From positions 1 through 52,475 of the forward strand of contig CAZEAA010000004.1 of the NCBI GenBank assembly GCA_964510015.1: 52,475 bases of DNA, in the 5' to 3' direction. This DNA is from an uncultured Sandaracinaceae bacterium (GTDB taxonomy: Bacteria; Myxococcota_A; Polyangia; Polyangiales; Houyiibacteriaceae). Position 1 is the first letter of the stretch, and every line of letters starts with the position of its first letter. The notes beneath the pieces were generated by a model. It saw only the letters and a list, made by a program, of their open reading frames with translations, was not told the DNA's origin and did not search any database. The translations under genes and the position numbers were made by a program. Positions 18,213 through 49,600 of the stretch are shown here, piece by piece.

Positions 18213-18470
18213 ATGCACGACCCCCAGACCATTCGCCCGCAGCTCAAGCGCTGGCTGCTGGACCACGCCAGCGCGGCGCCGCCAGCGGAGTTCACGGACC
18301 AGCTCCGCATCCTCGAGGTGGGGCTGCTCAACTCGCTCGACATCGTGGAGTTCGTGCTCTTCATCGAGGAGCTGCGCGGCGTGGAGGTGGACACCGACGA
18401 GATCGAGCCCGAGGTCTTCACCAGCATCGACACCCTGTGGGCGGCGTTCTTCGCTCCCCTCTCGGCGTGA
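18213..18470 (+). CDS. DltC-like (D-alanyl-type) carrier protein (85 aa; alternative start 18165 gives 101 aa)
   Basis: In frame with the tail of track ORF 15750..18470. EVGLLNSLDIVEFVLFIEELRGVEVDTDEIEPEVFTSIDTL parallels the DltC phosphopantetheine-site region as I recall it (EEGLLDSFGTVELLLAIENRF...ITEFDRDVWNTPNNI). No clear SD for either start. Confidence 0.7.
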   Translation: MHDPQTIRPQLKRWLLDHASAAPPAEFTDQLRILEVGLLNSLDIVEFVLFIEELRGVEVDTDEIEPEVFTSIDTLWAAFFAPLSA

Positions 18471-18491
18471 GATGCACGAGGTGACCGCGAC

Positions 18492-20204
18492 ATGAGCCAC
18501 GAGCCGACGCTGCGGAGTGGTTTCCTGAGGTCGCTCGCGCGCTTCCCCGAGCGTCCTTGCCTCGCCATCGGCGACGAGACGCTGACCTACGCGGCGCTCG
18601 CGGAGCGGGCCCGGGCCATCGCCGCCACGCTGGACGCGCACACCGACGAGCCCTCCATCCGAGAGGCAGCCGCGGGCCAGCCTCCCAGCCGGCTGACGGC
18701 CGTCTTCGGTCACCGTCACCCCACCGCCTTCGCGGGCCTCCTGGGCGCGCTGCTGCACGGTCATGGCTACGTGCCGCTCAACCCCACGTTCCCGCTGCCG
18801 CGCAGCGCCGCCATGCTGGAGCGCTCGGGCTGCGCCGCGCTGGTGGTGGACGCCACGGCCAGCGCCAAGCTGCCCGAGCTGCTGGAGGGCTTTGCGCGCG
18901 CGCTCGTGGTGCTGGTGCCCGACATGATCGACGCCGCGGAGCTCACCGCGCTGCGCGCCGCGCTGCCCACGCATCGCGTGCTGGGGGCGCTCGACCTCGC
19001 GCCCGCGCGCGACCATGTGCTCGGCGACGCGGCCCCCGACGACGTGGCCTACCTGCTCTTCACCAGCGGCTCCACCGGTCAGCCCAAGGGCGTGATGGTG
19101 GCGCACCGCAACGTGAACGCGTTCATCGACGTCATGGTGGAGCGCTACGCCATCACCGAGCACGACAAGTTCAGCCAGACGTTCGACCTGACCTTCGACC
19201 TGAGCGTGTTCGACACCTTCTGCGCGTGGGAGCGCGGCGCCTGCGTGTGCGTGCCCACCGCGCAGCAGAAGCTCTTCCCCAGCAAGTACCTGAAGCAGCA
19301 CGAGCTGACGGTGTGGTTCAGCGTGCCGTCCACCGGCGTGCTCATGAGCCGCCTGCGCATGCTCAAGCCCAACAGCTACCCGAGCCTGCGCTGGACCCTG
19401 TTCTGCGGGGAGGCACTGCCGTCCGACATCGTCACGCAGTTCGCCGCGGCGGCGCCCGCGTCCGTGGTGGAGAACCTCTACGGCCCGACCGAGCTGACCA
19501 TCGCGTGCACGCTCTATCGCTGGAACGGGGAAGCGTCTTTGGCGGAGTGCGCGCACGGCGTGGTGCCCATCGGCGAGCCCTACCCCGGCATGCGGGTCAT
19601 CGTGGTGGACGAGGCGCTCCAGCCGCTGCCGCGCGGCGAAGCGGGCGAGCTCTTGCTGGCGGGTGCGCAGGTGACGCCGGGCTACTGGCAGGACCCGGAG
19701 CGCACGGCGAAGGCGTTCGTGGTGCCGCCGGGCGAGACCGAGGTGTTCTACCGCACGGGCGACCGCGTGCGCTGGCCCGAGGGTGGCCCGCTGCTGTACC
19801 TCGGACGCGTGGACAACCAGGTGAAGATCCAGGGCTACCGCGTGGAGCTCGGCGAGATCGAGGCCGTGCTGCGCGACCTCGGCCGCACCGAGGTGGCCAT
19901 CGCGATCGGCTGGCCGCTGTCCACGAGCGGCGCGGACGGCGTGGTGGGCTTCGTGCAAGCGCCCGAAGGGGCCACGGACGAAGCGCGCTTGGCATTGAGC
20001 CAACAGCTGGTGGCGGACAGCAAGTCGCGCCTGCCGAGCTACATGCAGCCGTCGCGCGTGGTGCTGGTGGACGAGTGGCCGCTCAACGCCAACGGCAAGG
20101 TGGACCGCGCTGCGCTGCGCGCGGTGGTGGACGCCGAGGCTCTGGCCACGGCACCCCAGAGGCCCGGCGCGAGCGCGAGCACGGGCACGGAAGGCGTCGC
20201 GTGA
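18492..20204 (+). CDS. Stand-alone adenylating enzyme, DltA-like carrier-protein ligase (570 aa)
   Basis: AMP-binding core motifs [58 protein letters not shown]. It has the FCGE variant (TLFCGEALP) and TVWFSVPST, which parallel DltA FMFCGEVLP and NVWTSTPSF as I recall them. No C, T or TE domain. Confidence 0.9.
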   Translation: MSHEPTLRSGFLRSLARFPERPCLAIGDETLTYAALAERARAIAATLDAHTDEPSIREAAAGQPPSRLTAVFGHRHPTAFAGLLGALLHGHGYVPLNPTFPLPRSAAMLERSGCAALVVDATASAKLPELLEGFARALVVLVPDMIDAAELTALRAALPTHRVLGALDLAPARDHVLGDAAPDDVAYLLFTSGSTGQPKGVMVAHRNVNAFIDVMVERYAITEHDKFSQTFDLTFDLSVFDTFCAWERGACVCVPTAQQKLFPSKYLKQHELTVWFSVPSTGVLMSRLRMLKPNSYPSLRWTLFCGEALPSDIVTQFAAAAPASVVENLYGPTELTIACTLYRWNGEASLAECAHGVVPIGEPYPGMRVIVVDEALQPLPRGEAGELLLAGAQVTPGYWQDPERTAKAFVVPPGETEVFYRTGDRVRWPEGGPLLYLGRVDNQVKIQGYRVELGEIEAVLRDLGRTEVAIAIGWPLSTSGADGVVGFVQAPEGATDEARLALSQQLVADSKSRLPSYMQPSRVVLVDEWPLNANGKVDRAALRAVVDAEALATAPQRPGASASTGTEGVA

Positions 20205-21055
20205 ACAAGCGCTGGGTCATCAAGAAGGCCGCGCGCGGGGCGGTCACCTTCGGGTCACTGGCCAGCGGCGCGCTCGCGCTGCGCGGGGCCCTCGCGCGGG
20301 GTCCACGGGTGCGCGGGCTGACGTACCACCGCGTGGGCGACGACGCGCCGCAGGACCCCTTCTGCGTGACGCGCAGCGCCTTCGACGCGCAGATGCGGCT
20401 GCTGGCCGAGGAGGGCCGCGCGGTGTCGCTCGAGCAGGTGCAGCGCTTCGTGGCGGGGCGCGAAGACCTGCCCGATGGGGCGTGCCTCGTGACCATCGAC
20501 GACGGCTGCCTCAGCACGCTGACCGAGGTGCTGCCCACCCTGCGCCGCTGGGGCGTGCCGGCCGTGGCGTTCGTGAGCGCGTCCATCGTGGGCGGCGACT
20601 ACGAGGGCCTGCCCGAGCGATTCCTCACGTGGGACGAGCTGCGCACGCTGGACGAGAGCCCGCTCATCACCATCGGCTCGCACGCGCACACGCACCGCTC
20701 GCTGGGGCTCATGTCGGTGGACGACGCGCGCCACGAAGCGCTGCGCTCGCGCGAGACGCTCGAACGTGAGCTCGGCCACGAGGTGCGCTGCTTCGCCTAC
20801 CCGTTCGGCACGCGCGCGGACTTCAACCCAGTCACCGAGCGGGTGCTCGCGGACGCGGGCTACCACGTGGCGTTCAACTCCATGCACGGCACCATCCAGA
20901 AGGGCATGGATCCCATCAGCCTGCCGCGCGTGAAGATCGAGGGCGGTGAGCCGCTCGCCATGTTCGCGCTGCAGAGCCGCGGCGCCCTCGACGCGTGGCG
21001 CGTGGTGGACCAGAACCTCTACCGCTTGCAGCGCGTGCGCCGGGAGATCACGTGA
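20201..21055 (+). CDS. Polysaccharide deacetylase, NodB-homology domain (284 aa)
   Basis: GTG at 20201 overlaps the upstream stop (GTGA). Motifs VTIDDG, GSHAHTH, CFAYPFG. In frame with the tail of track ORF 18557..21055. Confidence 0.85.
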   Translation: MNKRWVIKKAARGAVTFGSLASGALALRGALARGPRVRGLTYHRVGDDAPQDPFCVTRSAFDAQMRLLAEEGRAVSLEQVQRFVAGREDLPDGACLVTIDDGCLSTLTEVLPTLRRWGVPAVAFVSASIVGGDYEGLPERFLTWDELRTLDESPLITIGSHAHTHRSLGLMSVDDARHEALRSRETLERELGHEVRCFAYPFGTRADFNPVTERVLADAGYHVAFNSMHGTIQKGMDPISLPRVKIEGGEPLAMFALQSRGALDAWRVVDQNLYRLQRVRREIT

Positions 21056-22215
21056 TCTTCCTGGCCAGCGCAGCGCTGGGCGTCACGGGCACGCTCGCCA
21101 CCCTGCCGGGGACGCTCGAGCTGGGCATGCTGACCGTGGGCTCGCTGCTGGGCCAGCCACGCCGGCTCGGCGACGCGCGTGAGTGCGGGAAGCTCGCCGT
21201 GATCGTGCCGGCCCACAACGAGGCCGGCGGCATAGAGCGCTGCGTTCTGAGCTTGCTCACGTGCGCGCAGCCCCCGAGCGGCGCGCGCGTCATCGTGGTG
21301 GCCGACAACTGCAGCGACGACACGGCAGCCCGCGCGCGCGCGGCGGGTGCCGAGGTGCTGGAGCGCACCGACACCGTCCGCCGCGGCAAGGGCTTCGCGC
21401 TCGAGTACGGCTTCGAGCACGCGCTGCGCGACCCGAGCGTGGACGCCTGCCTGGTGGTGGACGCCGACACCACGGTGCAGCCCGACTTCCTGGTGGCCAT
21501 GGCCGCAGCCTTCGCGGGTGGCGCCGACGGGGTGCAGTGCCGCTACCTGGTGAGCAACGCCGACGAGCACCGCCTGCGCAACGTGGCGCTGCTGGCCTTC
21601 AACGTGGCGCGCCCCCGTGCACGTGAGCGCTTCGGGCTGTCGGTGGGCATCCTGGGCAACGGCTTCGGCCTGCATCGCCGCGTGCTCGAGGCCCTGCCCT
21701 ACACGGCGCGCTCGGTGGTGGAGGACCTCGAGTACCACGTCATGATGGTGCGCGCGGGCTTTGCCGTGCGCTTCGTGGAGCAGACCGCCGTGAGCGCCGC
21801 CGTGCCCACCACGGAGGCCGCCGAGACCACGCAGCGCGCGCGCTGGGAGGGAGGCCGCCTGCGCATGCTGCGCGAGCTGGCGCCGAGCCTGTGCGCCGAC
21901 GTGCTGCGCGGGCACGGACGCAGCGTGGAGCCGCTGGGTGAGCTGCTGCTGCTGCCGCTGGCGTCGCACGTGGGCATCCTCGCGCTGGTGCTGGTGGTGC
22001 CCTTCCCGCCCACGCAGCTGTACGCCGCGGGTGCCCTCGGCCTCGTGGGCGCGCACGTGCTGAGCAGCCTGCTGACCAGCGGCGCCACGCGCAGCGACTG
22101 GGTGGCCCTCGGCACGGCCCCCTTCTACGTGGCGCGCAAGCTCGCGCTCATGCCCGCCATCCTGCGGGCCTCGAAGACGGAACAGGAGTGGGTGCGCACC
22201 GCCCGCCCCAGCTGA
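21052..22215 (+). CDS. Processive-type family-2 glycosyltransferase with C-terminal membrane domain (387 aa)
   Basis: GTG at 21052 overlaps the upstream stop (GTGA). Motifs AVIVPAHNE, VVADNCSDDT, VVDADT, VEDLEY, QRARW (QxxRW). Hydrophobic N-terminal and C-terminal segments. Confidence 0.85.
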   Translation: MIFLASAALGVTGTLATLPGTLELGMLTVGSLLGQPRRLGDARECGKLAVIVPAHNEAGGIERCVLSLLTCAQPPSGARVIVVADNCSDDTAARARAAGAEVLERTDTVRRGKGFALEYGFEHALRDPSVDACLVVDADTTVQPDFLVAMAAAFAGGADGVQCRYLVSNADEHRLRNVALLAFNVARPRARERFGLSVGILGNGFGLHRRVLEALPYTARSVVEDLEYHVMMVRAGFAVRFVEQTAVSAAVPTTEAAETTQRARWEGGRLRMLRELAPSLCADVLRGHGRSVEPLGELLLLPLASHVGILALVLVVPFPPTQLYAAGALGLVGAHVLSSLLTSGATRSDWVALGTAPFYVARKLALMPAILRASKTEQEWVRTARPS

Positions 22216-22237
22216 GGTCTGCGGTGGAGAGAAGACC

Positions 22238-23275
22238 ATGTTGATGCGAAGCACCGAGACCCCTCCACTGCGCTCGAGCCGCCTCCCCGGCGTGCGCGTG
22301 GTGGGCTCCCTGTGCCTGCTCACCCTCGTGGCGGGCACGAGCCAGTGCAGCCGCCGCCCCGCCGACGAACCCAGCCACGAAGTCAGCAGCGATCCCGGCC
22401 GCGAAGTCAGCAGCGACGTCAGCAACGACGTCCGCAACGACGCCACCACCACCGCGCCGCGCGACACGCAGCCTCCCGGTGAGCTGCCGAACCCCCGGGC
22501 GCCGCTCACGAGCGCCAACGTCTTCTTCCTCGGGCACAGCCTGCAGGGCTGGCATGCGGCCGCGATGATCGCGAACTTCAGCGCGCACGCGGGCGTCACC
22601 TACCGCTACAAGTCCGCCATCGGCAACGGGGCCAACCTGATGTGGCAGTGGGACCACCCCACCACGGCCGAGGGGCACAACCCGCGCACCACGCTCGGCG
22701 CCGAGCCCTTCGACGTGCTGGTCATGACCGAGGCGATCCCACTCGCCACCCACGTGCAGTGGTCCGACAGCGTGGCCAACGCGGGCCGCTTCCTCGCGCT
22801 CGCGTACGCGCAGAACCCAAACGTTCAGGCCTATCTCTACGAGACCTGGCACTCGCGGAACGTGAGCGACTGGCGTGGGCAGCTCGACAGCGACCGCGCG
22901 CTCTGGATGTCCATCGTGAACGGCGTGAACGCCGCGCACCCCGGTCGCGACATGCTCCTGATCCCCGGTGGGCGGGCCATGGCCGCGCTGGTCGACCGCA
23001 TCGAGGCCGGCGGCGTGCCGGGCATCTCGAGCGTGGACGCGCTCTTCGTGGACGACATCCACCTGAGCGACACCGGCTGGTACTTCATCGCCATGGTGCA
23101 GTACGCCACCATCCTGCGGCGGTCCCCGGTGGGCCTGCCGGCCGCCACCACCAATCGCTTCGGCGTGGCCATCCCACCGCCTCCCGCCAGCGCGGTGCCC
23201 GTCATGCAAGCGATCGCGTGGCAGGTCGTGCTCGGCGATCCCTCGGCTGGTGTGGCCGCCACAGACGCGCCATGA
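22238..23275 (+). CDS. Exported SGNH/GDSL-like hydrolase or transferase candidate (345 aa)
   Basis: GGAGAGAAG lies 5 nt upstream of the ATG. N-terminal signal/anchor followed by a low-complexity linker. Block I-like FFLGHSL and block V-like DDIHLSDTGWYFIA. Paralog of 41041..42027. Confidence 0.6.
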   Translation: MLMRSTETPPLRSSRLPGVRVVGSLCLLTLVAGTSQCSRRPADEPSHEVSSDPGREVSSDVSNDVRNDATTTAPRDTQPPGELPNPRAPLTSANVFFLGHSLQGWHAAAMIANFSAHAGVTYRYKSAIGNGANLMWQWDHPTTAEGHNPRTTLGAEPFDVLVMTEAIPLATHVQWSDSVANAGRFLALAYAQNPNVQAYLYETWHSRNVSDWRGQLDSDRALWMSIVNGVNAAHPGRDMLLIPGGRAMAALVDRIEAGGVPGISSVDALFVDDIHLSDTGWYFIAMVQYATILRRSPVGLPAATTNRFGVAIPPPPASAVPVMQAIAWQVVLGDPSAGVAATDAP

Positions 23276-23285
23276 ACGCTCGCCC

Positions 23286-24488
23286 ATGACGCGCTCGGTC
23301 CCACTCGATCGCCGCTACCTGCTGGTGATGCCGATCCCCTACTACGTCGACGACTTCGGCGCGGTGTGGGTGGATCGTCTGTGGAAGCACGATCTCGAGC
23401 GGCACCTCGACTACCTGCCGCAGCTCACGCTGACGGCGCCGTGCGCAACGCTCGGCGCCGAGAAGGACATGGTCCGCTTCGACCCACCGGCGGGCATGAC
23501 GCTGATCCCGCTGCCCCACACCACGTCCATGACGAGCGCCGTGCTGGGGCTGCCCACCACCGCGCTGCGGCTCTTCCGCGCGGTGAAGGCCAACGAGATC
23601 GTCCACTCGGGCGCGGTCGGGTGGCCGTATCCCATCGGCTGGCTGGCCAACCTGTTCGCGAGCCTCCTGCGCAAGCCGCTGGTGGTGGTGGTGGAGAGCG
23701 CGCCGTGGCGCTCCACGGGGGAAGACGACTCGTGGAAGCGACGCCTCCGCAAGGTGGTCTACGAGCGGCTCGCGCGCTGGTCGTGTCGCCGCGCGACGGT
23801 GGCGTTCTTCACGCAGCCGGCCTACCGCGAGTCGCTCTTCGGTGGTCGCGGCACCGCCTACGTCACGCCGGCCACCTGGATGAACGCCGACGACATCGTC
23901 TCCGAAGCAGCCGCGCAGACCCGCTGGCAGGAGCGCGTGCGCGAGCCCGTGCGGCTGCTCTTCGCGGGCCGCCTGGACGCCGACAAGGGCGTGCGCGTGC
24001 TGCTGGACGCCGTCCGCGCGAGCGACGCCAAGGGCCAGGCCGTCGCGCTCGACATCATCGGCTCGGGCCCGCTGCGCGACGTGTGCGAGCAGGCCGCACG
24101 CGAGCTGCGCACGGCCACGATCCGAATGCTGGATCCCGTGCCCTACGGCGCTCCGTTCTTCGCGCTGGTGGACAGCTACCACGCCGTGGTGGTCCCGAGC
24201 GTGACCGACGAGCAGCCGCGCATCCTCTTCGACGCACACGCGCGCGCCGTGCCGATCATCGCCTCGGGCACGGACGGACTGCGGCCCCACGTCGTCGAAG
24301 GCGAGCGCGAATTCCTGGTGACCCCGGGCGACGTGCGCTCCCTACAGGCCGCTCTCGAGCGCGCCACGGCGCGTCCCGAAGAGCTGCGTGACAACGGCCT
24401 CGCGGGGCGGCGGAACGTGCTCGGTCTCACGCACCAAGCCATGCACGAGAATCGGTCGGACATCTTGCGGCGCCACTTCGGGGCCTAG
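23286..24488 (+). CDS. GT-B fold (family 4-like) glycosyltransferase (400 aa)
   Basis: Start at MTRSVPLDRRY. C-terminal Rossmann half: LLFAGRLDADKGV..VVVPSVTDEQPRILFDAHARAVPIIAS..VTPGD. Confidence 0.8.
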   Translation: MTRSVPLDRRYLLVMPIPYYVDDFGAVWVDRLWKHDLERHLDYLPQLTLTAPCATLGAEKDMVRFDPPAGMTLIPLPHTTSMTSAVLGLPTTALRLFRAVKANEIVHSGAVGWPYPIGWLANLFASLLRKPLVVVVESAPWRSTGEDDSWKRRLRKVVYERLARWSCRRATVAFFTQPAYRESLFGGRGTAYVTPATWMNADDIVSEAAAQTRWQERVREPVRLLFAGRLDADKGVRVLLDAVRASDAKGQAVALDIIGSGPLRDVCEQAARELRTATIRMLDPVPYGAPFFALVDSYHAVVVPSVTDEQPRILFDAHARAVPIIASGTDGLRPHVVEGEREFLVTPGDVRSLQAALERATARPEELRDNGLAGRRNVLGLTHQAMHENRSDILRRHFGA

Positions 24489-24528
24489 ATCCGAGCGCCC
24501 GGGCAATCCCTTCCATCGCAGAATCGCA

Positions 24529-26300: not shown

Positions 26301-26361
26301 GGTGACCCGGAGGGAGCGTCTTGGGGCATGGCGCGCCCCCCGGCAAGTCACGCACGCAGGC

Positions 26362-27934: not shown

Positions 27935-28369
27935 TCAGTCGGCCGAGCAAGGCCCGTCGTACGGCGTCATGGTCAGCACCCGCGTGACGCGGAACCCCTG
28001 CGCGCCCTCGAGCACCTCCACCCACAGGTTGTGGCGCATGCTCCGGCCGTAGGCGTGCACCTCGATGCAGCGCGTGCCCCACTCGACCGTGGTGCCCACC
28101 GCTTGGAACGACGTGCTGTCGTGCACGATGTTGAAGGCCGGCGTGCTCTCCCCGCGCTCGCCCCGCACCACGCGGAGCGCGTCGCCCTCGGCGCGTTCGG
28201 CGGCCGCCGGCGACTCGGCCTTGACCTCCTCCAAGAAGGCGACCACCAGCTCGGCCTGAGGCTTCGCGCGGTATTGGGCCACCCAGTAGGCCACGGCCAG
28301 CGCCGCGGCGAGCGCCAACAGAAACCAGACAGGACGCGGCACCAGAGGTGGGAGCTCGTCTTCAGCCAT
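27935..28369 (-). CDS. Small N-terminally anchored protein, unknown function (144 aa)
   Basis: One TM segment (VWFLLALAAALAVAYWV) followed by a balanced, coding-like sequence. The competing overlapping frame is Arg/Pro-rich. Confidence 0.5.
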   Translation of the reverse strand: MAEDELPPLVPRPVWFLLALAAALAVAYWVAQYRAKPQAELVVAFLEEVKAESPAAAERAEGDALRVVRGERGESTPAFNIVHDSTSFQAVGTTVEWGTRCIEVHAYGRSMRHNLWVEVLEGAQGFRVTRVLTMTPYDGPCSAD

Positions 28370-28491
28370 GATGGGTCACCCTTAGCCCGTCCCACTCGGA
28401 CGGTGTGTTCCCAGTGTAAGTCGAGGTCGGACGAGATATCAAACTGTGCGTGGCTGGCCCACCTGCTTCGCGTCTGTCAGCCTGCGCCGCG

Positions 28492-33646: not shown

Positions 33647-38320
<4,674 letters not shown>

Positions 38321-38335
38321 TCCTCCTGCGGCGGC

Positions 38336-39370: not shown

Positions 39371-39589
39371 CGCACCTAGCTAGCGCTGAACTTGACCGGC
39401 GGCAAGGCGCCCAACGTGATCTTTTACCGTGAAACAGGCTCGTTGCGGCCCGCTCAGGGGGTCTCGTGCGCTTGGAGTGGATTTCACTCTCACCGTCAAG
39501 TTTCTGCGCGGCGCTCAAGAATTTAGTGGCCGGATCGGAGAGAGTGACCCAAGGTGCCCCCGTGTAGTTTTTCGCCTACGCCGCCCCCT

Positions 39590-41026: not shown

Positions 41027-41040
41027 GCCGGGTGGGCCGC

Positions 41041-42027: not shown

Positions 42028-42029
42028 TC

Positions 42030-45000
42030 ATGTCCGACGAATACGAAGTCATGGAGCGCGACATCGCCGTCGTCGGGATGGCGGCGCGGGTGCCCGGGGC
42101 CAACACGCCCGCCGAGCTGTGGAAGAACCTGGTGGGCGGTGTGGAGTCCATCCGGCAGTACAGCGAAGAGGAGCTGCGCGCGGCCGGCGAGAAGCCCGAG
42201 CTGCTGCGCCACCCGCGCTACGTGCGCGCCGCCGCCCCGCTCGCGGGGGTGCCCCTGTTCGACGGGGAGTTCTTCGGGTTCAGCCCGAAGGAGAGCGCCA
42301 TCATGGACCCGCAGCACCGGCACTTCCTCGAGTGCTCGTGGGAGGCCCTCGAGAACGCCGCCCATCCGCCCGAGCGCTTCAAGGGCCCCATCGGCGTGTT
42401 CGCCGGCTGCGGCATGGGCAGCTACTTCTACGTGAACGTCTGCTCGCAGGCCGAGCTGGTGCGCGACGTGGGCCTGTTCCTGCTGCGTCACACGGGCAAC
42501 GACAAGGACTTCCTCGCCACGCGCGTGAGCTACCTGCTGGACCTCGCGGGGCCTTCGGTGAACGTGCAGACGGCCTGCTCCACGTCACTCGTGGCCACGC
42601 ACCTCGCGGTGCAGAGCCTGCTCGCGCGCGAGTGCGACATGGCGCTCGCCGGCGGCGTCACCATCGAGCTGCCGCAGGACCGCGGCTACGTCTACCAAGA
42701 GGGCGAGGTGCTCTCGCCCGACGGACACTGTCACGCCTTCGACCACCGCGGTCAGGGCACCGTGTTCGGCAGTGGTGTGGGCGTGGTGGTGCTGCGCCGC
42801 CTGGGCGACGCGCTCGACGACGGCGACGTGATCCACGCCGTGATCCGCGGCACCGCCGTGAACAACGACGGCGCGAAGAAGGTGAACTACCTGGCGCCCA
42901 GCGTGGACGGACAGGCGGCCTGCGTGGTGGAGGCCCTGGGCGTGGCCAACGTGGACGCGCGTAGCGTGGAGTACATCGAGTGCCACGGCACCGGCACCGC
43001 GCTCGGCGACCCGATCGAGGTGGAGGCGCTCACGCAGGGCTTCCGCACGCAGACCGACGCGCGCGGCTTCTGTCAGCTCGGGTCCATCAAGACCAACATC
43101 GGGCATCTCGACACGGCTGCGGGGGTCATCGGGCTGATCAAGGCGTCGCTCGCGCTGCGCCATGCGCAGATCCCCGCGTCCCTCGGGTACGAGAAGCCCA
43201 ACCCCGCCATCGACTTCGCGAGCTCGCCGTTCCGGGTCGCGAGTCAGCTGTCGGAGTGGCCGGCCCCCGCGGCTCACCCGCGCCGCGCGGCCGTGAACTC
43301 GCTCGGCGTGGGCGGCACCAACGCGCACATCGTCTTGCAAGAGCCACCCGGCCTGCCCGACGCCGAGCCACCCACGCGCCCCGTGCAGCTGCTCACGCTG
43401 TCGGCGCGCACGCGCAGCAGCTTGGACGCGCAGAGCCAGCGGCTCGCCGAGCACTTCACCGCACACCCGGACCTGTCCCTCGCGGACGCGGCCTTCACGC
43501 TGCACCACGGGCGCCGTGAGTTCGCGGAGCGGCGCGTGGTGGCGGCGGCATCGCTCGCCGAAGCGGCCGAGCTGCTGCGCACGGGCGACCCGCAGCGGGT
43601 GTTCACGCACAGCGTGCTGCGCGGCAAGACCGAGAGCGGCGCCCCGCACGTGGCCTTCCTGCTGCCAGGCGGCGGCGCGCAGTACGCGCGCATGACGGTG
43701 GACCTCTTCGAGCACGAGCCCGTGTTCCGCGAGCACATGGAGCGCGGCTTCGCGCTCTTGCAGGAGCGCCATCAGGTGGACCTTCGCCCGCTGCTGTACC
43801 CCGCGCGGGGGCAAGAGGCCGCGGCCGACGCGGAGCTGACGCCCATGAATCGGCAGCTGCCCGCCATCTTCCTCACGAGCGTGGCCATGGCGCGCCTGTT
43901 CGAGAGCTGGGGCGTCACCCCGAGCGCGTACCTCGGTCACAGCGTGGGCGAGAACACCGCCGCGCACTTGGCTGGCGTGATGACGCTCGAGGACTGCCTG
44001 GGCCTGGTCATGCTGCGCGCTCAGCTCTTCATGGAGACGCGGCCGGGCGCCATGCTGTCCGTCACGCTGTCCGAAGCCGAGGTGCGCGCGCTCCTGCCCA
44101 GCACCCTGGACCTCGCCGTGGTCAACGGCCCGAGCGCCTGCGTGGTGTCGGGCGATCCGGAGGCCATCGCGGCGATCGAGGCGCAGCTCGCCGGGCGCGA
44201 GGACGTGGAGACGCAGCGCTTGGCCATCCCGGTGGCGGCGCACTCGCGCCTGCTCGACCCGATCCTCGAGCGCTTCACCGCGTACCTCTGCAGCATTCGC
44301 CTGCGCGCGCCCAGCGTGCCCTTCCTGTCCAACCGCAGCGGCACGTGGATCACCGACGCCGAGGCCACGGATCCCACCTACTGGGCCAGCCACCTGCGCA
44401 GCGCGGTGCGCTTCGGGGACAACGTGGACGCGCTCTTGCAGCGCGGCCCGAGCGTGCTGCTGGAGGTGGGCCCCGGCCGCGCGCTCAGCTCGCTCGCGCG
44501 TCAGCACGCGGGCTTCCGCGCGGGGGGCCATCAGGCCATCGCGTCGGTGCGGCACAAAGACGAGGTGGTCTCGGACGTCACCTACTTCACCGCCTGCCTC
44601 GGCCGGCTGTGGGCCACCGGCGCCGCGCTCGACTGGGCGCCCATGTGGCCGGGCGAGCTGCGCTCGCGCGTGGAGCTGCCCACCTATGCGTGGGACCACA
44701 AGAGCTTCTTCATCGAGCCCGCGCTGCCCGTGAACGCGCCCAGCGAGCAGGCGCTCGAGAAGCTGCCCGACGTGCGCAGCTGGGGCTTCGTGCCGCGCTG
44801 GAAGCCCTCGCTCGCGGACCTTCCGCTCGAGGGCAGCGAGCCCGACGCGCCGCGCACCTACCTGCTGTTCATGGACCGGGGTGGCGTGGGGCAGCGCCTG
44901 CGTCAGCGCCTCACCCAAGCGGGCCAGCACGTGGTCGCGGTCTACGAAGGCGACGCCTTCCATCACCGCGGCAACGACGAGTACACGCTCAGCCCGGAGC

Positions 45001-48000
45001 GCGGGCGCGAGGGCTATGCCTCGCTGATCACGGACCTGGTGGAGCGCGGGCGCACGCCGGAGCGCGTGGTGCACCTGTGGCTGCTCGAGGCCGAGCAGAC
45101 GTTCCGTCCGGGCTCGAGCCTCTTCCACCACCACCTCGAGCGCGGCTTCTTCAGCCTCTTCTTCCTGGCCAAGGCGCTGGTGGACGCCAGCATCGCGAAC
45201 GTGCACCTCACGGTGATCGGCGATGGCCTCGTGCGCGTGGTCGACGAAGCGCTGCCCGACCCGCAGAAGGCCACCGTGCTCGGTCCGGTGAAGGTGCTGT
45301 CGCGCGAGCTCGAGGGCGCGAGCGCGCGGCTGGTGGACGTGCAGCTGCCGGCCCAGCGCAGCCAGCTCTTCGGTGGCTCGCTGCGCGCGGGCTTGCTCGA
45401 CCCGTTCGGTGGCAAGAAGCGGGTGGAGCAGGAGCTCGACGCGCTGACCGAACGCTTGGTAGATGAAGTGCGCGCCGCGGCGGGCGACGAAGTGGTGGCG
45501 CTGCGCGGTGACCGGCGCCTCACGCAGGTGCTGGCTCCGCGGGCGCTCGAGGAAGTCGCCGGCCCGAACGGCATGCCCACTCCAGAGGCCGCTGCTGGTC
45601 TCGGGAGACCCGAGTATGGGAGCACTCTCGGAAAGCCCGAGACCCTGCGCGAGCGCGGCGTCTACCTGATCACCGGCGGCCTCGGCGGCCTGGGCCTCAC
45701 CGTGGCCGACTACCTGGCGCGCACGTGTCACGCACGCCTCGCGCTGCTGGGACGCACGCCGCTGCCCGCGCGCGACCAGTGGCTCGCGTGGATCGCGCAG
45801 CACGGCGCGGGGGACCGCGTGAGTCAGCGCATGCAGCGCGTGCTGGACCTCGAGGCGAGCGGCGCCGAGGTGCTGGTGCTGACGGCGGACGTCACCAACC
45901 GCGAGGAGATGCAGGCCGCGCTCGGCACGCTGCACGCGCGCTTCGGGGCGCTGCACGGCGTGTTCCACACGGCCGGCGAGCTGGACGACGACCTCATCGC
46001 GCTCAAGACGCTCGAGAGCGTGGAGCAGGTCTTCGCGCCCAAGATCCAGGGCACGCGCATCCTGCACGAGCTGACCGCCGAGAGCCGCCTCGACTTCATG
46101 CTGCTCTTCAGCTCCACCTCCACGGTCACCGCGCCCGCGGGGCAGGTGGACTACGTGGCCGCCAACGCCTTCCTCGACGCATTCGCCGAAGGCCAGCGCG
46201 CCGCGGGCTCGCCGGTCACCTCGCTGCACTGGGGCATCTGGGCCGACGTGGGCATGGCCGCCGAGCCTGGGCGCCTGCGGGCTCACGCGCGCGTGGGTGA
46301 CCGGGTGGGGCAGCAGCCCACGCACCCGTGGCTGAGCGCGCGCGTCAGCGACGGCCGCGGCGAGTCCAGCCTGCGCGGCACGCTGTCGTCCGCGCAGCAC
46401 TGGATCCTGGACGGGCACCGCACGCTCGCCGGCCACGCGCTGATCCCCGGCACCGGCTACCTCGAGCTCGCGCGCGCCGCGCTGCGCGCCTACGGCGAGA
46501 CGGGGCCGTTCGAGATCGAGGACCTCTTCTTCGTCCGCCCCTTCGCGGTGGCCGATGGCGAAGCCCGTGAGCTGTTCGTAAAGCTGCGGCCCACCGCGCG
46601 GGGCTATCGCTTCGAGGTGCGCGGGCACGTCAGCGTGGGTGGCCGGGCAGGCACGGTGCTCATCGCGCAGGCGCACCTGGCGCTGCAGCTCGCCGCCGCC
46701 CCGGCCGACCTCGGCGCGGCGGAGCTCGCCGACATCGAGGCGCGCTGCACCACGAGCCATCTGGGACCTGTGGGCCCCGACGAGAGCGGCCTGCGCACGG
46801 CGCAGGAGGCGCACCTGCGCTTCGGGCCGCGCTGGCGCGTGCTGCGCGAGGCGCACCTCGGCCGCACCGAGGGCATCGCGCGCTTGGCGCTGCCGCCGCC
46901 GTTCACCGCCGAGAGCAGCGAGTTCGGCCTGCACCCCGCCCTGCTCGACATCGCCACCGGCTGGGCCATGTCCCTGATCGAAGGCTACGACGCGAGCACC
47001 CTCTACGTGCCCGTCTCCTACGAGCGCGCGCGCGTCTACCACGACCTCACGCCGCAGCTGCTGAGCTGGGTGCGCACGCCCGTGGTGAACCACGCCGACG
47101 CGGAGTTCGTGTTCTTCGACGTCACGCTCATGGACCCGAGCGGCAGGGTGCTCATGGAGGTGGAGCGCCTCGGCCTCCGGCGCATGAGCGGCGGCCCGGA
47201 CTTCGCGCTCGGCGGGCGCGTGGCGCCGACGGACGTGACCTTCCACGAGGACAGCAGCGAGCACGCCCCCTCGCCCGGTGAGGCGCTGCGCGACCGGCTC
47301 TTGCAGCAAGGCATCCGCACGGCCGAAGGCCAGGACGCCCTCGGCCGCGTGCTGCAGCAGCTCGCGCCGAAGTCTGGCGGGGCGCCCGCGCAGATCTTCG
47401 TGAGCTCCATGGACCTCCCCACGCTGGTGAAGCAGAGCAGCGCGGGCGAGAAGGCGCGCAGCGCCGGAGCCGGGCTCGAGCTGGCGCGCCCGGACCTGGG
47501 CGTGGACTACGTGGCCCCGCGGGACGAGGTGGAGAAGACGCTGGTGGGCTTCTGGCAAGAGCTGCTGGGCGTGGACCAAGTGGGCGTGCAGGACAGCTTC
47601 TTCGACCTCGGCGGTCACTCGCTCTTGGCGGTGCGCCTGTTCGCCAAGATCAAGTCGGCCTACCGCGTGGAGTTCCCCATCTCGGTGCTGTTCGAGGCGC
47701 CCACCATCGAGCGCTGCGCGGCGCTCTTGCGCGAGCACCTCGGGCCGCAGACCGACGTGGAAGGCAGCGCGGACGTGAGCGCGCCGAGCACCGCCGCGCG
47801 CCCGCGCTACACGCACCTCGTGGCCATGCACACCGGCGACGGAGGGCCCAAGACGCCCTTCTTCCTGGTGGCCGGCATGTTCGGCAACGTGCTCAACCTG
47901 CGGCACCTCGCGCACCTGGTGGGCACCGACCGGCGCTTCTACGGCCTGCAGGCGCGCGGCCTCTACGGGGAGCAAGCGCCGCACGAGACCTTCGAAGAGA

Positions 48001-48656
48001 TGGCCGCCGAGTACATCGCCGAGCTGACCAGCGTGCAGCCCCGCGGGCCCTACTTCCTGGGCGGCTTCTCGGGTGGCGGCATCACGGCCTACGAGATCGC
48101 GCGGCAGCTCGAGGCGCGCGGCGAAGAGGTGGCGCTGCTGGTCATGCTGGACACCCCGGTGCCCATGCCGCCGGCTGACCTGAGCCTGCGCGACCGCGTC
48201 TTGATCCAGCGCTCCGAGCTGCGCTCGAAGGGCCCCGCGTACGTGGCCGAGTGGGCCGAGCGCCGCGCCGCGTGGGAGCTCGGCAAGCTGCGCCGTCGCT
48301 TCGAGAGCGCCACGCCGGACAACACGCCCGAGAAGTTCCACGACGAGGCCATCGAGCAGGCGTTCCGGCGCGCGCTCGGCCGCTACGTGGTGGCCCCCCG
48401 CAAGCACGCCGCGGTGCACCTCTTCCGCCCCAAGCTGCCGGTGGCCTACGACCTCGGCGAGGGCCGCCGCATCAACCACGAGCGCTCCTACGTGTTCGAG
48501 GACAACGGCTGGACCCCCTTCGTGCGCGAGGTGGTGGTGGCCGAGGTGCCGGGTGACCACGACTCCATGGTGCTCGAGCCCAACGTGCGCGTGCTGGCGC
48601 GGCGCCTGCGCGAGGTGGTGGAGCAGGCGGAAGCGGCGCAGCGGAGGTCGCGATGA
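42030..48656 (+). CDS. Single-module type I polyketide synthase, KS-AT-(psi-KR)KR-DH-T-TE (2208 aa)
   Basis: Domain evidence, with approximate residues and window coordinates:
- KS, aa about 10-436 (42057-43337): QTACSTS, ECHGTGT, NIGHLD.
- AT, aa about 541-860 (43650-44609): GHSVGE, Arg in VMLRAQ, VAAHS.
- KR, aa about 940-1410 (44847-46259): YLITGGLGGLG, LDD, PKIQG, DYVAANAF.
- DH, aa about 1431-1720 (46320-47189): HPWL, LDGHRTLAGHALIPGTGYLE, LHPALLD.
- T, aa about 1828-1905 (47511-47744): [12 protein letters not shown], Ser codon at 47619-47621.
- TE, aa about 1940-2200: GGFSGGG, MLDT, GDHDSM. Confidence 0.95.
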   Translation: MSDEYEVMERDIAVVGMAARVPGANTPAELWKNLVGGVESIRQYSEEELRAAGEKPELLRHPRYVRAAAPLAGVPLFDGEFFGFSPKESAIMDPQHRHFLECSWEALENAAHPPERFKGPIGVFAGCGMGSYFYVNVCSQAELVRDVGLFLLRHTGNDKDFLATRVSYLLDLAGPSVNVQTACSTSLVATHLAVQSLLARECDMALAGGVTIELPQDRGYVYQEGEVLSPDGHCHAFDHRGQGTVFGSGVGVVVLRRLGDALDDGDVIHAVIRGTAVNNDGAKKVNYLAPSVDGQAACVVEALGVANVDARSVEYIECHGTGTALGDPIEVEALTQGFRTQTDARGFCQLGSIKTNIGHLDTAAGVIGLIKASLALRHAQIPASLGYEKPNPAIDFASSPFRVASQLSEWPAPAAHPRRAAVNSLGVGGTNAHIVLQEPPGLPDAEPPTRPVQLLTLSARTRSSLDAQSQRLAEHFTAHPDLSLADAAFTLHHGRREFAERRVVAAASLAEAAELLRTGDPQRVFTHSVLRGKTESGAPHVAFLLPGGGAQYARMTVDLFEHEPVFREHMERGFALLQERHQVDLRPLLYPARGQEAAADAELTPMNRQLPAIFLTSVAMARLFESWGVTPSAYLGHSVGENTAAHLAGVMTLEDCLGLVMLRAQLFMETRPGAMLSVTLSEAEVRALLPSTLDLAVVNGPSACVVSGDPEAIAAIEAQLAGREDVETQRLAIPVAAHSRLLDPILERFTAYLCSIRLRAPSVPFLSNRSGTWITDAEATDPTYWASHLRSAVRFGDNVDALLQRGPSVLLEVGPGRALSSLARQHAGFRAGGHQAIASVRHKDEVVSDVTYFTACLGRLWATGAALDWAPMWPGELRSRVELPTYAWDHKSFFIEPALPVNAPSEQALEKLPDVRSWGFVPRWKPSLADLPLEGSEPDAPRTYLLFMDRGGVGQRLRQRLTQAGQHVVAVYEGDAFHHRGNDEYTLSPERGREGYASLITDLVERGRTPERVVHLWLLEAEQTFRPGSSLFHHHLERGFFSLFFLAKALVDASIANVHLTVIGDGLVRVVDEALPDPQKATVLGPVKVLSRELEGASARLVDVQLPAQRSQLFGGSLRAGLLDPFGGKKRVEQELDALTERLVDEVRAAAGDEVVALRGDRRLTQVLAPRALEEVAGPNGMPTPEAAAGLGRPEYGSTLGKPETLRERGVYLITGGLGGLGLTVADYLARTCHARLALLGRTPLPARDQWLAWIAQHGAGDRVSQRMQRVLDLEASGAEVLVLTADVTNREEMQAALGTLHARFGALHGVFHTAGELDDDLIALKTLESVEQVFAPKIQGTRILHELTAESRLDFMLLFSSTSTVTAPAGQVDYVAANAFLDAFAEGQRAAGSPVTSLHWGIWADVGMAAEPGRLRAHARVGDRVGQQPTHPWLSARVSDGRGESSLRGTLSSAQHWILDGHRTLAGHALIPGTGYLELARAALRAYGETGPFEIEDLFFVRPFAVADGEARELFVKLRPTARGYRFEVRGHVSVGGRAGTVLIAQAHLALQLAAAPADLGAAELADIEARCTTSHLGPVGPDESGLRTAQEAHLRFGPRWRVLREAHLGRTEGIARLALPPPFTAESSEFGLHPALLDIATGWAMSLIEGYDASTLYVPVSYERARVYHDLTPQLLSWVRTPVVNHADAEFVFFDVTLMDPSGRVLMEVERLGLRRMSGGPDFALGGRVAPTDVTFHEDSSEHAPSPGEALRDRLLQQGIRTAEGQDALGRVLQQLAPKSGGAPAQIFVSSMDLPTLVKQSSAGEKARSAGAGLELARPDLGVDYVAPRDEVEKTLVGFWQELLGVDQVGVQDSFFDLGGHSLLAVRLFAKIKSAYRVEFPISVLFEAPTIERCAALLREHLGPQTDVEGSADVSAPSTAARPRYTHLVAMHTGDGGPKTPFFLVAGMFGNVLNLRHLAHLVGTDRRFYGLQARGLYGEQAPHETFEEMAAEYIAELTSVQPRGPYFLGGFSGGGITAYEIARQLEARGEEVALLVMLDTPVPMPPADLSLRDRVLIQRSELRSKGPAYVAEWAERRAAWELGKLRRRFESATPDNTPEKFHDEAIEQAFRRALGRYVVAPRKHAAVHLFRPKLPVAYDLGEGRRINHERSYVFEDNGWTPFVREVVVAEVPGDHDSMVLEPNVRVLARRLREVVEQAEAAQRRSR

Positions 48657-49600
48657 AGCTGCTGTGCGTGATCCTCAACTACAAGACCGCGGACATGACG
48701 CTGGACGCCATCCGCGCTGCCCGGGCCGCGCTCACCACGCTCGACCACCGCATCGACGTGGTGGACAACGACTCGCAGGACGGCTCGTTCGAGAAGCTTT
48801 GGAGCGCTGTGGCCGACGCGGGCTGGCCCGACGTGCGCGTGGTGCAGAGCGGGCACAACGGCGGCTTCGGCGCCGGCAACAACGTGGCCCTGCGCGCGGC
48901 GCTGCTCGAGCCCGACCCACCCGAGTTCCTCTACATCCTGAACTCCGACGCGTTCCCGGCGCCCGATGCGATCACAGCCCTGGTGCAGTTCCTGGAGACG
49001 CACCCGCGCGCGGGCATCGCCGGCAGCTTCATCCACGGCCCCGACGGCGACCCGCACCTCACCGCCTTCCGCTTCCCCAGCATGGCCAGCGAAGCGCTCA
49101 GCGGCTTCCGTCTCGGCGTGCTGCAGCGGCTCTTGCCCGACCGCGAGGTGCCCATCCACCCCATGCCCAGCGCCACGCAGCGCGTGCCCTGGCTGGCGGG
49201 CGCGTCCATGATGTTCCGCCGCGAGCTGCTGCAAGAGATCGGGCTCTTCGACGAGACGTTCTTCCTCTACTTCGAGGAGACCGACCTGTGCCGCCGCGCC
49301 CAGCTCGCCGGCTGGGAGTGCTGGTACGTGCTGGAGAGCCGCGTGGCCCACATCGGCAGCGTGTCCACCGGCATGAAGAACAAGGGCCGCCCCATGCCGC
49401 GCTACTGGTTCGACAGCCGCCGCCACTACTTCACCAAGAACCACGGCGCGGCCTACACGTGGGCCGCCAACGTCCTGCACGCGGCGGGCCTCGCCACGTT
49501 CAAGGCGCGCGCGGGGCTGCAGGGGAAGCCGGATCCCGACCCGGTGAACTTCCTGCGCGACTTCGCGAAGTACAACTTCGTGGAGCGCCGCCCGCGGTAG
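48653..49600 (+). CDS. Family-2 glycosyltransferase (rhamnosyltransferase-like; 315 aa)
   Basis: ATGA overlap with the PKS stop. Motifs LCVILNYKT, VVDNDSQDGS, GHNGGFGAGNN, LNSDA, FFLYFEETDLCRR. Confidence 0.85.
   Translation: MKLLCVILNYKTADMTLDAIRAARAALTTLDHRIDVVDNDSQDGSFEKLWSAVADAGWPDVRVVQSGHNGGFGAGNNVALRAALLEPDPPEFLYILNSDAFPAPDAITALVQFLETHPRAGIAGSFIHGPDGDPHLTAFRFPSMASEALSGFRLGVLQRLLPDREVPIHPMPSATQRVPWLAGASMMFRRELLQEIGLFDETFFLYFEETDLCRRAQLAGWECWYVLESRVAHIGSVSTGMKNKGRPMPRYWFDSRRHYFTKNHGAAYTWAANVLHAAGLATFKARAGLQGKPDPDPVNFLRDFAKYNFVERRPR

Follow-up and report, generated by a model that had tools for sequence, protein, structure and literature searches.

A hybrid nonribosomal peptide-polyketide cassette within a candidate surface-glycan locus of an uncultured Sandaracinaceae bacterium

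Roseobacters, among them Ruegeria sp. ANG-R, carry a gene cluster for a nonribosomal peptide synthetase (NRPS), a polyketide synthase (PKS), a glycosyltransferase (GT) and a phosphopantetheinyl transferase (PPTase), for which no product is reported (Collins et al., 2015, PMC4337385; Gromek et al., 2016, PMC5014874). Both papers cite Martens et al., 2007 for the original description, and the cluster is found in 28 of 57 roseobacter genomes, about half (PMC4337385). Here we describe a relative of this cluster in a 52,475-nucleotide stretch of DNA from an uncultured Sandaracinaceae bacterium (GenBank assembly GCA_964510015.1, contig CAZEAA010000004.1; hereafter the window), where it lies at 18213-49600 together with genes for the synthesis and export of a polysaccharide. 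Our comparisons suggest that this span is a surface-glycan locus with a hybrid NRPS-PKS line and an aminoacylation module built in, which would modify a lipid-linked glycan; we consider this reading moderately probable. The original prediction, made from the letters of the same DNA, had also joined these genes into one locus, for a polysaccharide whose substituents are delivered by carrier proteins. Its link to a glycan was directionally right and has comparative support, but it has to be reduced to two thiotemplate modules, and the core of the system was already known.

A precedent for the concept is carenaemin of Collimonas arenae, for which genetic evidence indicates that a PKS-NRPS cluster and a Wzy-dependent cluster are both required; in the authors' model, the core is attached to a lipid-linked sugar repeat and then exported by Wzx (PMC8313283). 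There, too, a PKS-NRPS cooperates with a Wzy-dependent repeat-unit pathway, but the Collimonas genes occupy two separate loci and encode an unrelated synthetase architecture, whereas those of the window are interleaved in single operons, with one NRPS and one PKS module. The window also resembles the Wzx/Wzy pathways of myxobacteria, such as those for Myxococcus exopolysaccharide, biosurfactant polysaccharide and spore coat, in having a polyprenyl-phosphate hexose-1-phosphate transferase (PHPT), a polysaccharide co-polymerase (PCP), an outer-membrane polysaccharide export (OPX) lipoprotein, GT2 and GT4 enzymes and an EpsU-like GT2. In those Myxococcus pathways, the genes for Wzx and Wzy lie outside the main cluster, as they would here. 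To our knowledge, none of the characterised Myxococcus polysaccharide loci contains thiotemplate enzymes, unlike the locus in the window.

Genes were called by third-position GC (GC3; the window is about 70% G+C) and annotated with Pfam and NCBIfam profiles. The span 18213-49600 holds 20 genes, g15 to g34, in five transcription units: operon 1 (18213-24488, + strand; g15, g16, g17, g18, g19 and g20), operon 2 (28369-24654, − strand; g23, g22 and g21), the single GT2 gene g24 (28450-29490, +), operon 4 (39370-29533, −; OPX g30, NRPS g29, PCP g28, Alg14 g27, Alg13 g26 and lipoprotein g25) and operon 5 (39554-49600, +; PHPT g31, g32, PKS g33 and GT2 g34). Between the divergent operons 4 and 5 lies a promoter region of 183 nt (39371-39553). 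These calls and scans reproduced the gene content, domain orders and coordinates given earlier, and all five of the quoted 4-nt overlaps (at 20201, 21052, 30564, 31076 and 48653) are exact. In motif checks, catalytic residues were intact in the deacetylase g17, in g18, in the formyltransferase domain of g29 and in every domain of the PKS g33. Relatives were gathered by a scan with g29, taking one genome per species, which gave 80 loci; context counts use those of at least 20 kb (n = 47). Related loci were compared by tblastn of all window proteins and by de novo clustering of all open reading frames (ORFs), and a glycan-gene neighbourhood was counted where labelled glycan genes lay no more than 10 kb from the NRPS gene. 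By these comparisons, the 31-kb block consists of a conserved core (g15-g19, g24 and g25-g34) with lineage-specific fill.

Conservation of the NRPS-PKS pair and its neighbourhood

The NRPS gene (g29, 33647-38320, −) and the PKS gene (g33, 42030-48656, +) lie 3.7 kb apart in divergent operons. Full-length homologues of g29 (44-87% identity) were found in Myxococcota, Chloroflexi, Rhizobiaceae, Rhodobacteraceae, Planctomycetota, Spirochaetes, Actinomycetota and others, and full-length homologues of g33 share its domain order at 43-82% identity (40-82% when Gemmatimonadota variants without a formyltransferase domain are included). A g33-type PKS gene adjoins the NRPS gene in 39 of the 47 long loci, across many phyla. 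Such an ancient adjacent pair points to one hybrid assembly line, so that the three independent thiotemplate modules once proposed become two.

The pair is best seen, from its distribution, as a cassette making one particular building block, mostly but not only in glycan contexts. In Ruegeria sp. ANG-R (L076), the homologue of g29 is 47% identical over aa 13-1525 and that of g33 is 49% identical over aa 11-2201, with the same domain order. The GT2 encoded between the PKS and NRPS genes there and in L132 is 57-58% identical (58% in ANG-R) to g34, a soluble GT2 that is the conserved glycosyltransferase of the cassette (48653-49600, +; Pfam). Fifteen related loci, Ruegeria sp. ANG-R and the Ruegeria plasmid NZ_CP065364 among them, have a homologue of g34 (45-58%) beside the PKS or the NRPS gene, and tblastn adds one more (L013); an Sfp-type PPTase is present in 19. 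The pair with its GT2 is thus the orphan roseobacter NRPS/PKS cluster known since 2007 and not an undescribed system, as had been thought likely. The window version departs from it in lacking the PPTase, in having divergent NRPS and PKS operons, and in its layout: where the roseobacter genes form a compact group of four, those of the window alternate with genes for OPX/PCP or PHPT/SGNH.

In the NRPS operon, the synthetase gene is embedded in export genes. The OPX lipoprotein g30 (38336-39370, −; Pfam Poly_export and SLBB) is encoded first, 15 nt from g29, and only 10 nt separate g29 from the PCP gene g28 (31582-33636, −; Wzz domain by Pfam and NCBIfam, with no Walker A kinase motif in a motif check). 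The order OPX-NRPS-PCP recurs in nine myxobacterial loci (the window, L001-L004, L127, L128, L130 and L131), in one of which, L004, a PPTase gene intervenes between NRPS and PCP, and an OPX gene also precedes the NRPS gene in L012. This interleaving in nine loci, as a pattern of gene order, is hard to reconcile with chance adjacency. The operon continues with the two subunits of an Alg13/14-type GT, the Alg14/PssD-like g27 (31076-31579, −; Pfam Alg14, NCBIfam PssD) and the Alg13/PssE-like g26 (30564-31079, −; Pfam Glyco_tran_28_C, NCBIfam PssE), which have clustered homologues in 10 cassette loci, or 11 by tblastn. It closes with the lipoprotein g25 (29533-30567, −; no Pfam match), a member of a large myxobacterial lipoprotein family of more than 370 homologues, all annotated as hypothetical; g25 is syntenic in L001, L127, L128, L130 and L131, and Sandaracinus amylolyticus has unrelated paralogs. 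The PKS operon opens with a WcaJ-type PHPT, g31 (39554-41026, +; TIGR03023 at 532 bits, cut-off 411). Of the components of a Wzx/Wzy-dependent pathway, PHPT, PCP and OPX are therefore in the window; Wzx and Wzy were found there by neither Pfam nor tblastn, and both are encoded in related cassette loci.

Glycan genes accompany the NRPS gene in every long locus from Myxococcota (12/12), Rhizobiaceae (8/8), Rhodobacteraceae (3/3) and Spirochaetes (2/2) and in 4/5 from Planctomycetota, and in none from Chloroflexi (0/7) or from Gemmatimonadota (0/4), the NRPSs of the latter being without the formyltransferase domain. After the PPTase and the g34-like GT2, the next most frequent neighbour families, by number of related loci, are Wzx (13), the g18-like GT2 (11), Alg13/14 (10), and the g24-like GT2, the g19/g32 family and Wzy-like proteins (8 each); GT4s, WecG, PCP, OPX and PHPT also occur. 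Annotated sequences from isolates show a similar association. On plasmid pUSP1 of Aminobacter sp. MSH1, the order is PKS / NRPS-PPTase-GT-hypothetical / GH9 / O-antigen-ligase family-OPX-BcsQ-like-flippase-GT-GT4. In Planktotalea (L023) it is GT4-GT2-Wzx-PKS-GT2-NRPS-PPTase-g32-like-PCP-kinase-like ... GT2-GT4, and on the Ruegeria plasmid PKS-GT2-NRPS lie amid GTs, a sugar transferase, acyltransferases and a polysaccharide deacetylase.

The GT2 g24 (28450-29490, +; Pfam) has homologues of 40-53% identity in cassette loci of Rhodobacteraceae, Rhizobiaceae, Planctomycetota, Aminobacter and Sandaracinaceae. Next to the g24-like gene in two loci is a gene for a GFO/IDH/MocA-epimerase fusion of 727-803 aa (L023:21128-23311 and L130:15598-18009), which is missing from the window and is probably a sugar-nucleotide modifying enzyme for the substrate of g24.

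These neighbourhoods bear on a rival explanation, in which the NRPS, the PKS and the GT2 make a free small metabolite (a glycosylated Gly-polyketide or a glycolipid) that shares only a neighbourhood, sugar-nucleotide supply or export with a polymer that stays unmodified. The roseobacter genome papers treat the cluster as one for a secondary metabolite, and the four-gene form in Ruegeria (NRPS, PKS, GT and PPTase) looks self-sufficient. The PKS ends in a standard thioesterase (TE) with its Ser and His. In Chloroflexi (L008, L011) the pair belongs to NRPS clusters of the usual kind, free of glycan genes, which further encode one A-T-C and two C-T-TE proteins, a pair of flavin halogenases, an acyl-CoA dehydrogenase and an acyltransferase of the AT3 family (C, condensation; T, thiolation; A, adenylation). 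A free metabolite fits poorly, however, with an NRPS gene set between OPX and PCP genes, with gaps of 10-15 nt in the window and the same placement across the nine myxobacterial loci, or with a PKS gene set between PHPT/SGNH and GT2 genes. Genes for Wzx, Wzy-like proteins, PCP, OPX and PHPT recur nearby across five groups, and a product bearing a sugar from a single GT would need neither Alg13/14 nor the two further GT2 families that travel with the cassette. We judge a free metabolite unlikely, though by no means negligible.

Predicted chemistry of the NRPS and the PKS

The NRPS g29 has the order F-x-A[LLM insert]-T (Pfam, NCBIfam, PDB comparison and family alignment), in which F is a formyltransferase domain and LLM a luciferase-like monooxygenase (MOx). 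The F domain (Formyl_trans_N/C, aa 1-295) has its catalytic residues N103/H105/D141, and this Asn/His/Asp set is conserved in 50-51 of 54 full-length family members; among solved structures it matches ArnA, sugar N-formyltransferases and Fmt (E ~1e-13) better than the F domain of LgrA (E 2e-6). Between F and A lies a stretch of about 260 aa (~296-560) that is a condensation-domain remnant. Within it, aa 378-557 match only the C-terminal half of condensation domains (Txo1, McyB); the HHxxxDG motif is absent, a local HRH is not conserved in the 54-member alignment, and the region averages just 26% identity across the family. This agrees with the earlier statement that no catalytically intact condensation domain is present: g29 has no functional condensation domain upstream, no downstream C domain and no TE.

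The AMP-binding domain is split by the luciferase-like monooxygenase (~800-1150; Bac_luciferase aa 813-1126), which scores 486 bits with TIGR04020 (MupA/Atu3671 family), above the cut-off, and 375 bits with PuwE (PDB 6ket). The specificity code, read by hand against the GrsA sequence, is D-I-L-Q-M-G-M-I-W-K, the glycine code with two Leu-to-Met changes, and LgrA is the most similar to the A domain among solved structures. Across the 54 members, the code does not vary at positions 235, 236, 239, 278, 301 and 331 and hardly varies at 322 and 517; M, F or L occupies position 299 and I or V position 330, giving a near-invariant DILQ(M/F/L)GM(I/V)WK. The phosphopantetheine-accepting serine of the T domain (PP-binding; Ser1483) is kept in 52/54 members. 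The F-C*-A(MOx)-T order and the glycyl reading of this protein, both proposed from the letters, were correct by domain scans and code.

Two known NRPS module types come close to g29. Like the initiation module of LgrA (F-A-peptidyl carrier protein, linear gramicidin), g29 has an N-terminal F domain with N/H/D ahead of A-T, but it differs in the condensation remnant between F and A, in the MOx insert, in an F domain closer to ArnA/Fmt and in the lack of a downstream C domain. Like the A(MOx) modules of MtaG and MelG (myxothiazol, melithiazol) and like PuwE, it has a Gly-code A domain interrupted between A4 and A5 by a luciferase-like monooxygenase. The MtaG/MelG-type module is terminal and amide-forming. 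In contrast, g29 is neither preceded by a functional C domain nor followed by a TE, and would be a starter feeding a ketosynthase (KS).

The F domain is retained in Chloroflexi loci that are without sugar genes, which argues that it acts on the T-bound glycine and not on an amino sugar. A role as amino-sugar formylase was considered, with F as the ArnA-like enzyme and g34 or g18, g17 and g21 as analogues of ArnC, ArnD and ArnT; it was set aside because F is kept in these sugar-free loci and because g21 is not conserved. In five metagenomic loci (L091, L092, L093, L094 and L095; e.g. L091:107-2476 and L093:10001-12511), stand-alone A proteins with 33-39% identity to g16 are encoded near a formyltransferase-like gene (downstream in L091-L093 and L095, upstream in L094) whose product shares about 31% identity with the g29 F domain. 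Their arrangement suggests a split version of the F/A chemistry of g29.

The PKS g33 is a single-module type I enzyme of about 2,200 aa with the order KS-AT-(psiKR)KR-DH-ACP-TE (AT, acyltransferase; KR, ketoreductase; DH, dehydratase; ACP, acyl carrier protein) by Pfam, NCBIfam and motif checks, and none of its catalytic residues is missing. All 38 homologues keep the Cys-His-His of the KS, the Ser of the AT, the Tyr of the KR, the His/Asp of the DH and the Ser of the ACP, and 36 of the 38 keep the Ser and His of the TE. The KS-AT region of g33 is similar to KS domains located downstream of NRPS modules, as in 8xju/8xjz, ClbK and further hybrid NRPS/PKS entries. The AT domain (43647-44669) scores 254 bits with the AT of ZmaA (PDB 4qbu), against 120-170 bits with malonyl/methylmalonyl ATs (DEBS, CurL), and its xAAHS motif is invariant in the 38 homologues. 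The carrier g15 and the A enzyme g16 were considered as suppliers of an ACP-linked extender to this ZmaA-like AT; this idea was set aside because the AT motif is invariant in cassettes without g15/g16 and because g15/g16 always occur with the deacetylase.

In g33 the KR precedes the DH, and there is weak similarity to PfaA. This order is seen in iterative synthases for polyunsaturated fatty acids and enediynes. A second rival builds on it: the NRPS-PKS would make an aglycone that serves as reducing-end primer or anchor of the glycan, and if g33 were iterative this would be a longer unsaturated amino-lipid. A parallel is the lipid carrier of the Sinorhizobium K-antigen, for which the PKS-like RkpA and the ACP RkpF have been proposed. 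The domain order and the PfaA similarity do suggest possible iteration; the GT2 g34 is the most constant partner and could glycosylate a polyketide, and the TE might either pass its product to a sugar or set it free as an acid. Yet a WcaJ-type PHPT, above its model's cut-off, is encoded in the PKS operon itself, so priming on undecaprenyl phosphate is already provided. There is also no chain-length support, and a formyl- and hydroxyl-tailored glycine starter looks like a head group, not a lipid. We regard an aglycone as quite improbable.

The aminoacyl-carrier module and the SGNH proteins

The first four genes of operon 1 form a second thiotemplate module. g15 (18213-18470, +) encodes an 85-aa stand-alone carrier protein with a GLLNSLD serine motif (weak NCBIfam ACP matches, no Pfam match), and g16 (18492-20204, +) a stand-alone A enzyme (Pfam AMP-binding; NCBIfam AA-adenyl-dom at 343 bits). 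g17 (20201-21055, +) encodes a carbohydrate esterase family 4 (CE4) deacetylase (Pfam Polysacc_deac_1; weak PgaB, IcaB and HfsH matches) with the motifs TIDDG and HAHTH (HxxxH); its overlap of 4 nt with g16 is consistent with translational coupling. g18 (21052-22215, +) is a membrane GT2, EpsU-like, with three predicted transmembrane (TM) segments and the motifs DAD and QRARW (Pfam, NCBIfam and motif check). The QxxRW enzyme listed earlier is therefore present, but the GT2 total is three including this one, not three plus a fourth.

g16 is a bona fide amino-acid adenylating enzyme, with equivalents of Asp235 and Lys517. The module had been called DltA-like and its product D-Ala-like. The first label is loose and the second unsupported. 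NCBIfam DltA models give g16 only 267-273 bits against cut-offs of 476-560 (the subfamily model 272 against 476), and among solved structures it comes closest to the second (Gly) A domain of LgrA (361 bits), ahead of two stand-alone A proteins, PDB 4oxi (249 bits) and DltA (203 bits). We take 4oxi to be AlmE of V. cholerae, the glycine ligase of the AlmEFG lipid A system. Bulky residues line the pocket of g16 (D-L-F-F-L-C-L-I-A-K by manual reading), pointing to a small alpha-amino acid (Gly, Ala or D-Ala) as substrate.

AlmEFG adds glycine to Vibrio cholerae lipid A, and Dlt is a D-alanylation system. Like both, the window has a stand-alone A enzyme next to a small carrier in an envelope-glycan locus. 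Unlike them, g15 and g16 are accompanied by no AlmG-type acyltransferase, and no ORF of the span has a Pfam match to MBOAT (DltB) or DltD; their partners are a CE4 deacetylase, a membrane GT2 and, in two of three lineages, an SGNH protein.

The module recurs beside the NRPS operon in two other lineages, with orthologues of g16 at 66-80% and of g17 at 65-78% identity (L004; L130/L131). In L004, from Polyangia, the order is OPX-NRPS-PPTase-PCP-Alg14-Alg13-g18, followed by a 739-aa secreted protein, g17, g16 and a fragment of g15 at the contig end. In L130/L131, from a Sandaracinaceae metagenome-assembled genome, g25 is followed by a 664-aa protein, g19, g18, the GFO/IDH/MocA-epimerase fusion, a g24-like GT2, g17 and g16, all inverted. 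An orthologue of g19 (62%) lies next to g18 in L130 and L131, whereas in L004 g19 is not beside the module. The same partners in different orders speak for a functional linkage of g15-g18 with the NRPS operon, shared by g19 in two of the three lineages. Homologues of g18 occur in 11 cassette loci, including those of Rhizobiaceae and Planctomycetota. A metagenome scan with g16 found two close relatives only, both on short contigs, and a cluster of A proteins from Rhizobiaceae and Chloroflexi (cluster 25), at first labelled g16-like, was not counted as orthologous at 23-28% identity.

This recurrence is a difficulty for a third explanation, chance juxtaposition of an exopolysaccharide locus, an orphan NRPS-PKS cluster and an aminoacyl-carrier/deacetylase cluster that serves another envelope polymer. 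In its favour, g20-g23 are without counterparts in related loci, the operons run in different directions, and the close relatives L001 and L128 show no homologues of g15-g24 beyond g25 in the retrieved sequence. But the module re-associates with the NRPS operon in L004 and L130/L131 in different orders and orientations, thiotemplate genes alternate one by one with export genes inside the operons, and the association with glycan genes spans phyla. Chance accordingly retains little probability. Co-occurrence of the whole gene set in relatives, which the original prediction had named among its checks, is found in part: the thiotemplate-glycan link and the re-association of the module recur, whereas g20-g23 are not conserved and the Chloroflexi pair is free of glycan genes.

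Two genes of the core encode SGNH-like paralogs. g19 (22238-23275, +; GHSL and DDIH motifs) and g32 (41023-42027, +; DUF4886-like, with Ser71/Asp261/His264 from alignment, AlphaFold 2 and Foldseek) are 34% identical (E 2e-43) and have a common GHSL...DxxH signature, as had been noticed from the letters. An alignment of 91 members of the g32 family has invariant G69-H70-S71-L72, E172, W174, D261 and H264. The AlphaFold model of g32 (mean pLDDT 94.6) has a long N-terminal, presumably membrane, helix followed by an alpha/beta domain with the SGNH fold. In Foldseek it matches the DUF4886 protein 4i8i (E 3e-9) and many GDSL/SGNH hydrolases, as well as PatB, a peptidoglycan O-acetyltransferase, and the periplasmic SGNH domain of a lipopolysaccharide O-acetyltransferase. 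A PDB sequence search with the proteins g19, g32 and u07 gave no match. Genes like g32 are found in cassette loci of Rhodobacteraceae and Rhizobiaceae. From the model, both proteins are membrane-anchored SGNH enzymes that presumably face the periplasm, and late acyl-transferases or esterases would be plausible roles; with that orientation, neither could pick up an acyl group directly from a cytoplasmic carrier protein.

Proposed pathway and flanking genes

We infer each chemical step, the acceptor and the transfer enzymes from the gene and domain content, catalytic residues, glycine code and neighbourhoods described above. The genes probably form one system, for a glycan or glycoconjugate with Gly-malonate-derived and aminoacyl substituents. 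g29 would activate glycine and hold it on its T domain, where the F domain and the inserted monooxygenase would modify it, the likely reactions being N-formylation and alpha-hydroxylation. In MtaG and PuwE, LLM domains of the TIGR04020-type family place a hydroxyl group on the alpha carbon of the tethered substrate. The KS of g33 would take this starter and extend it, once or iteratively, with a malonyl-type unit; the product would be reduced and dehydrated, and the TE would off-load a small unsaturated amino-acyl unit. The oligosaccharide that receives this unit or is attached to it would be built by g34, Alg13/14 and the remaining GT2s, and the joining would most probably take place on the lipid-linked repeat, on the cytoplasmic side. 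For transfer to the sugar, the TE is the likeliest enzyme, and such a reaction has a precedent in Pks13 and trehalose. In parallel, g16 would load a small amino acid, of Gly or Ala size, onto g15, and g17 would expose a hexosamine amine on the glycan made by g18, to which the aminoacyl group would be added. g19 and g32 would act after flipping, as acyl-transferases or esterases, and Wzx, Wzy and the PPTase would be encoded elsewhere in the genome.

Several points weigh against this pathway. No enzyme with a known ability to transfer acyl groups from carrier proteins to sugars is encoded in the window, nor is there a route across the membrane for the donor of the SGNH proteins. In L002, L003 and L004, the NRPS operon is present with no PKS within about 10 kb. 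In L001 and L128 (NRPS 77%) and in L127 (87%), an AT3 acyltransferase follows g25 in place of g24 (L001:18747-19994; L127:10799-11665; L128:11034-11352). None of the labelled glycan families occurs in the seven Chloroflexi loci, and the presence of the pair in glycan-free NRPS clusters means that it can serve non-glycan chemistry. The extender of g33 may not be malonyl-CoA and may be unusual, because its AT is closest to that of ZmaA, and the chain length is uncertain because the KR precedes the DH as in iterative synthases. ZmaA uses an ACP-linked hydroxymalonyl extender. Finally, we found no characterisation or product of the NRPS/PKS/GT cassette in the searchable literature.

The AT3 gene is followed by genes unrelated to g15-g24 in L001, and the contigs of L127 and L128 end at AT3. 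An AT3 protein together with SGNH proteins would form a two-part O-acylation system, which is lacking in the window.

More tentatively, we propose as a possible general scheme that the thiotemplate line builds a non-sugar substituent on a lipid-linked oligosaccharide, which is then exported by Wzx/Wzy/PCP/OPX. Such a scheme would be common to myxobacteria, rhizobia, roseobacters, planctomycetes and spirochaetes and would explain the roseobacter cluster; in the window it would be joined with a carrier-dependent aminoacylation of de-N-acetylated hexosamine. The systematic embedding of the orphan cluster in glycan-export loci appears to be new, and we found no statement of it in the searchable literature; its combination with an aminoacyl-carrier/deacetylase module, in Sandaracinaceae and Polyangia, is apparently new as well. 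The habitual embedding in Wzx/Wzy-type loci, and the splicing between OPX, PCP and PHPT genes, redirect the search for the product from culture extracts to surface polysaccharides and lipid-linked oligosaccharides. The question of the roseobacter product, open since 2007, thereby becomes a concrete experiment, for which Ruegeria, Aminobacter and Neorhizobium are tractable carriers. Should the product prove to be a substituent of the polymer, it would represent a new type of glycan decoration in bacteria, with a bearing on biofilm, symbiosis and phage-receptor biology.

The absences listed in the original prediction (Wzx, Wzy, PPTase and MBOAT) were upheld. Searched by tblastn with representatives from related loci, the window gave no PPTase, Wzx, Wzy, AT3 or BY-kinase (bacterial tyrosine kinase), and in the ORFs scanned Pfam matched none of these and no MBOAT. 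Exact-sequence matches to proteins of the window were confined to short metagenome contigs of the same organism.

The remaining genes of the span, g20-g23, have no counterpart in the related loci examined. g20 (23250-24488, +; the start may be 23286) is a GT4 (Pfam Glycos_transf_1) and is not conserved in L001, L004 or L130. g21 (24654-26351, −) is an accessory GT-C glycosyltransferase with 10 TM or hydrophobic segments (Pfam PMT_2, PMT), whose membership in the system is doubtful. g22 (26362-27876, −) is an accessory lipoprotein with a CarboxypepD_reg domain (Pfam) and the lipobox LVSGC, and g23 (27935-28369, −) is an accessory 144-aa protein with a single TM segment.

Divergent from g15 lies a gene for an 817-aa lipoprotein (15609-18062, −) with nine MopE-type, Cys-rich 'putative metal-binding' repeats, whose frame extends as a spurious 1464-aa ORF across g15 and g16. 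The GNAT-like protein once placed upstream was not found there, the upstream genes being those for a CMD-family protein, a short-chain dehydrogenase/reductase and a pectinacetylesterase-like lipoprotein. Further out, a 2OG-Fe(II) oxygenase (6618-7619, −) and a 381-aa protein (7561-8706, +) have homologues of 43-56% identity beside the cassette in L015, L017, L024 and L056. In the window this pair is found 10 kb upstream of the span, where its neighbours are an AurF-like di-iron oxygenase and a protein with 10 TM segments (together 8717-11513), the latter (9630-11513) having no family match. By this resemblance in gene content, the locus may have outlying members upstream.

At the other end, a toxin-antitoxin pair (49849-50431) follows g34 directly, in a stretch of lower GC3, and marks the right border of the locus. 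It includes an ORF for a helix-turn-helix/MqsA-like antitoxin (50090-50431, +), next to which the gene calls for a second assembly of this sequence (L081) place a BrnT-type toxin.

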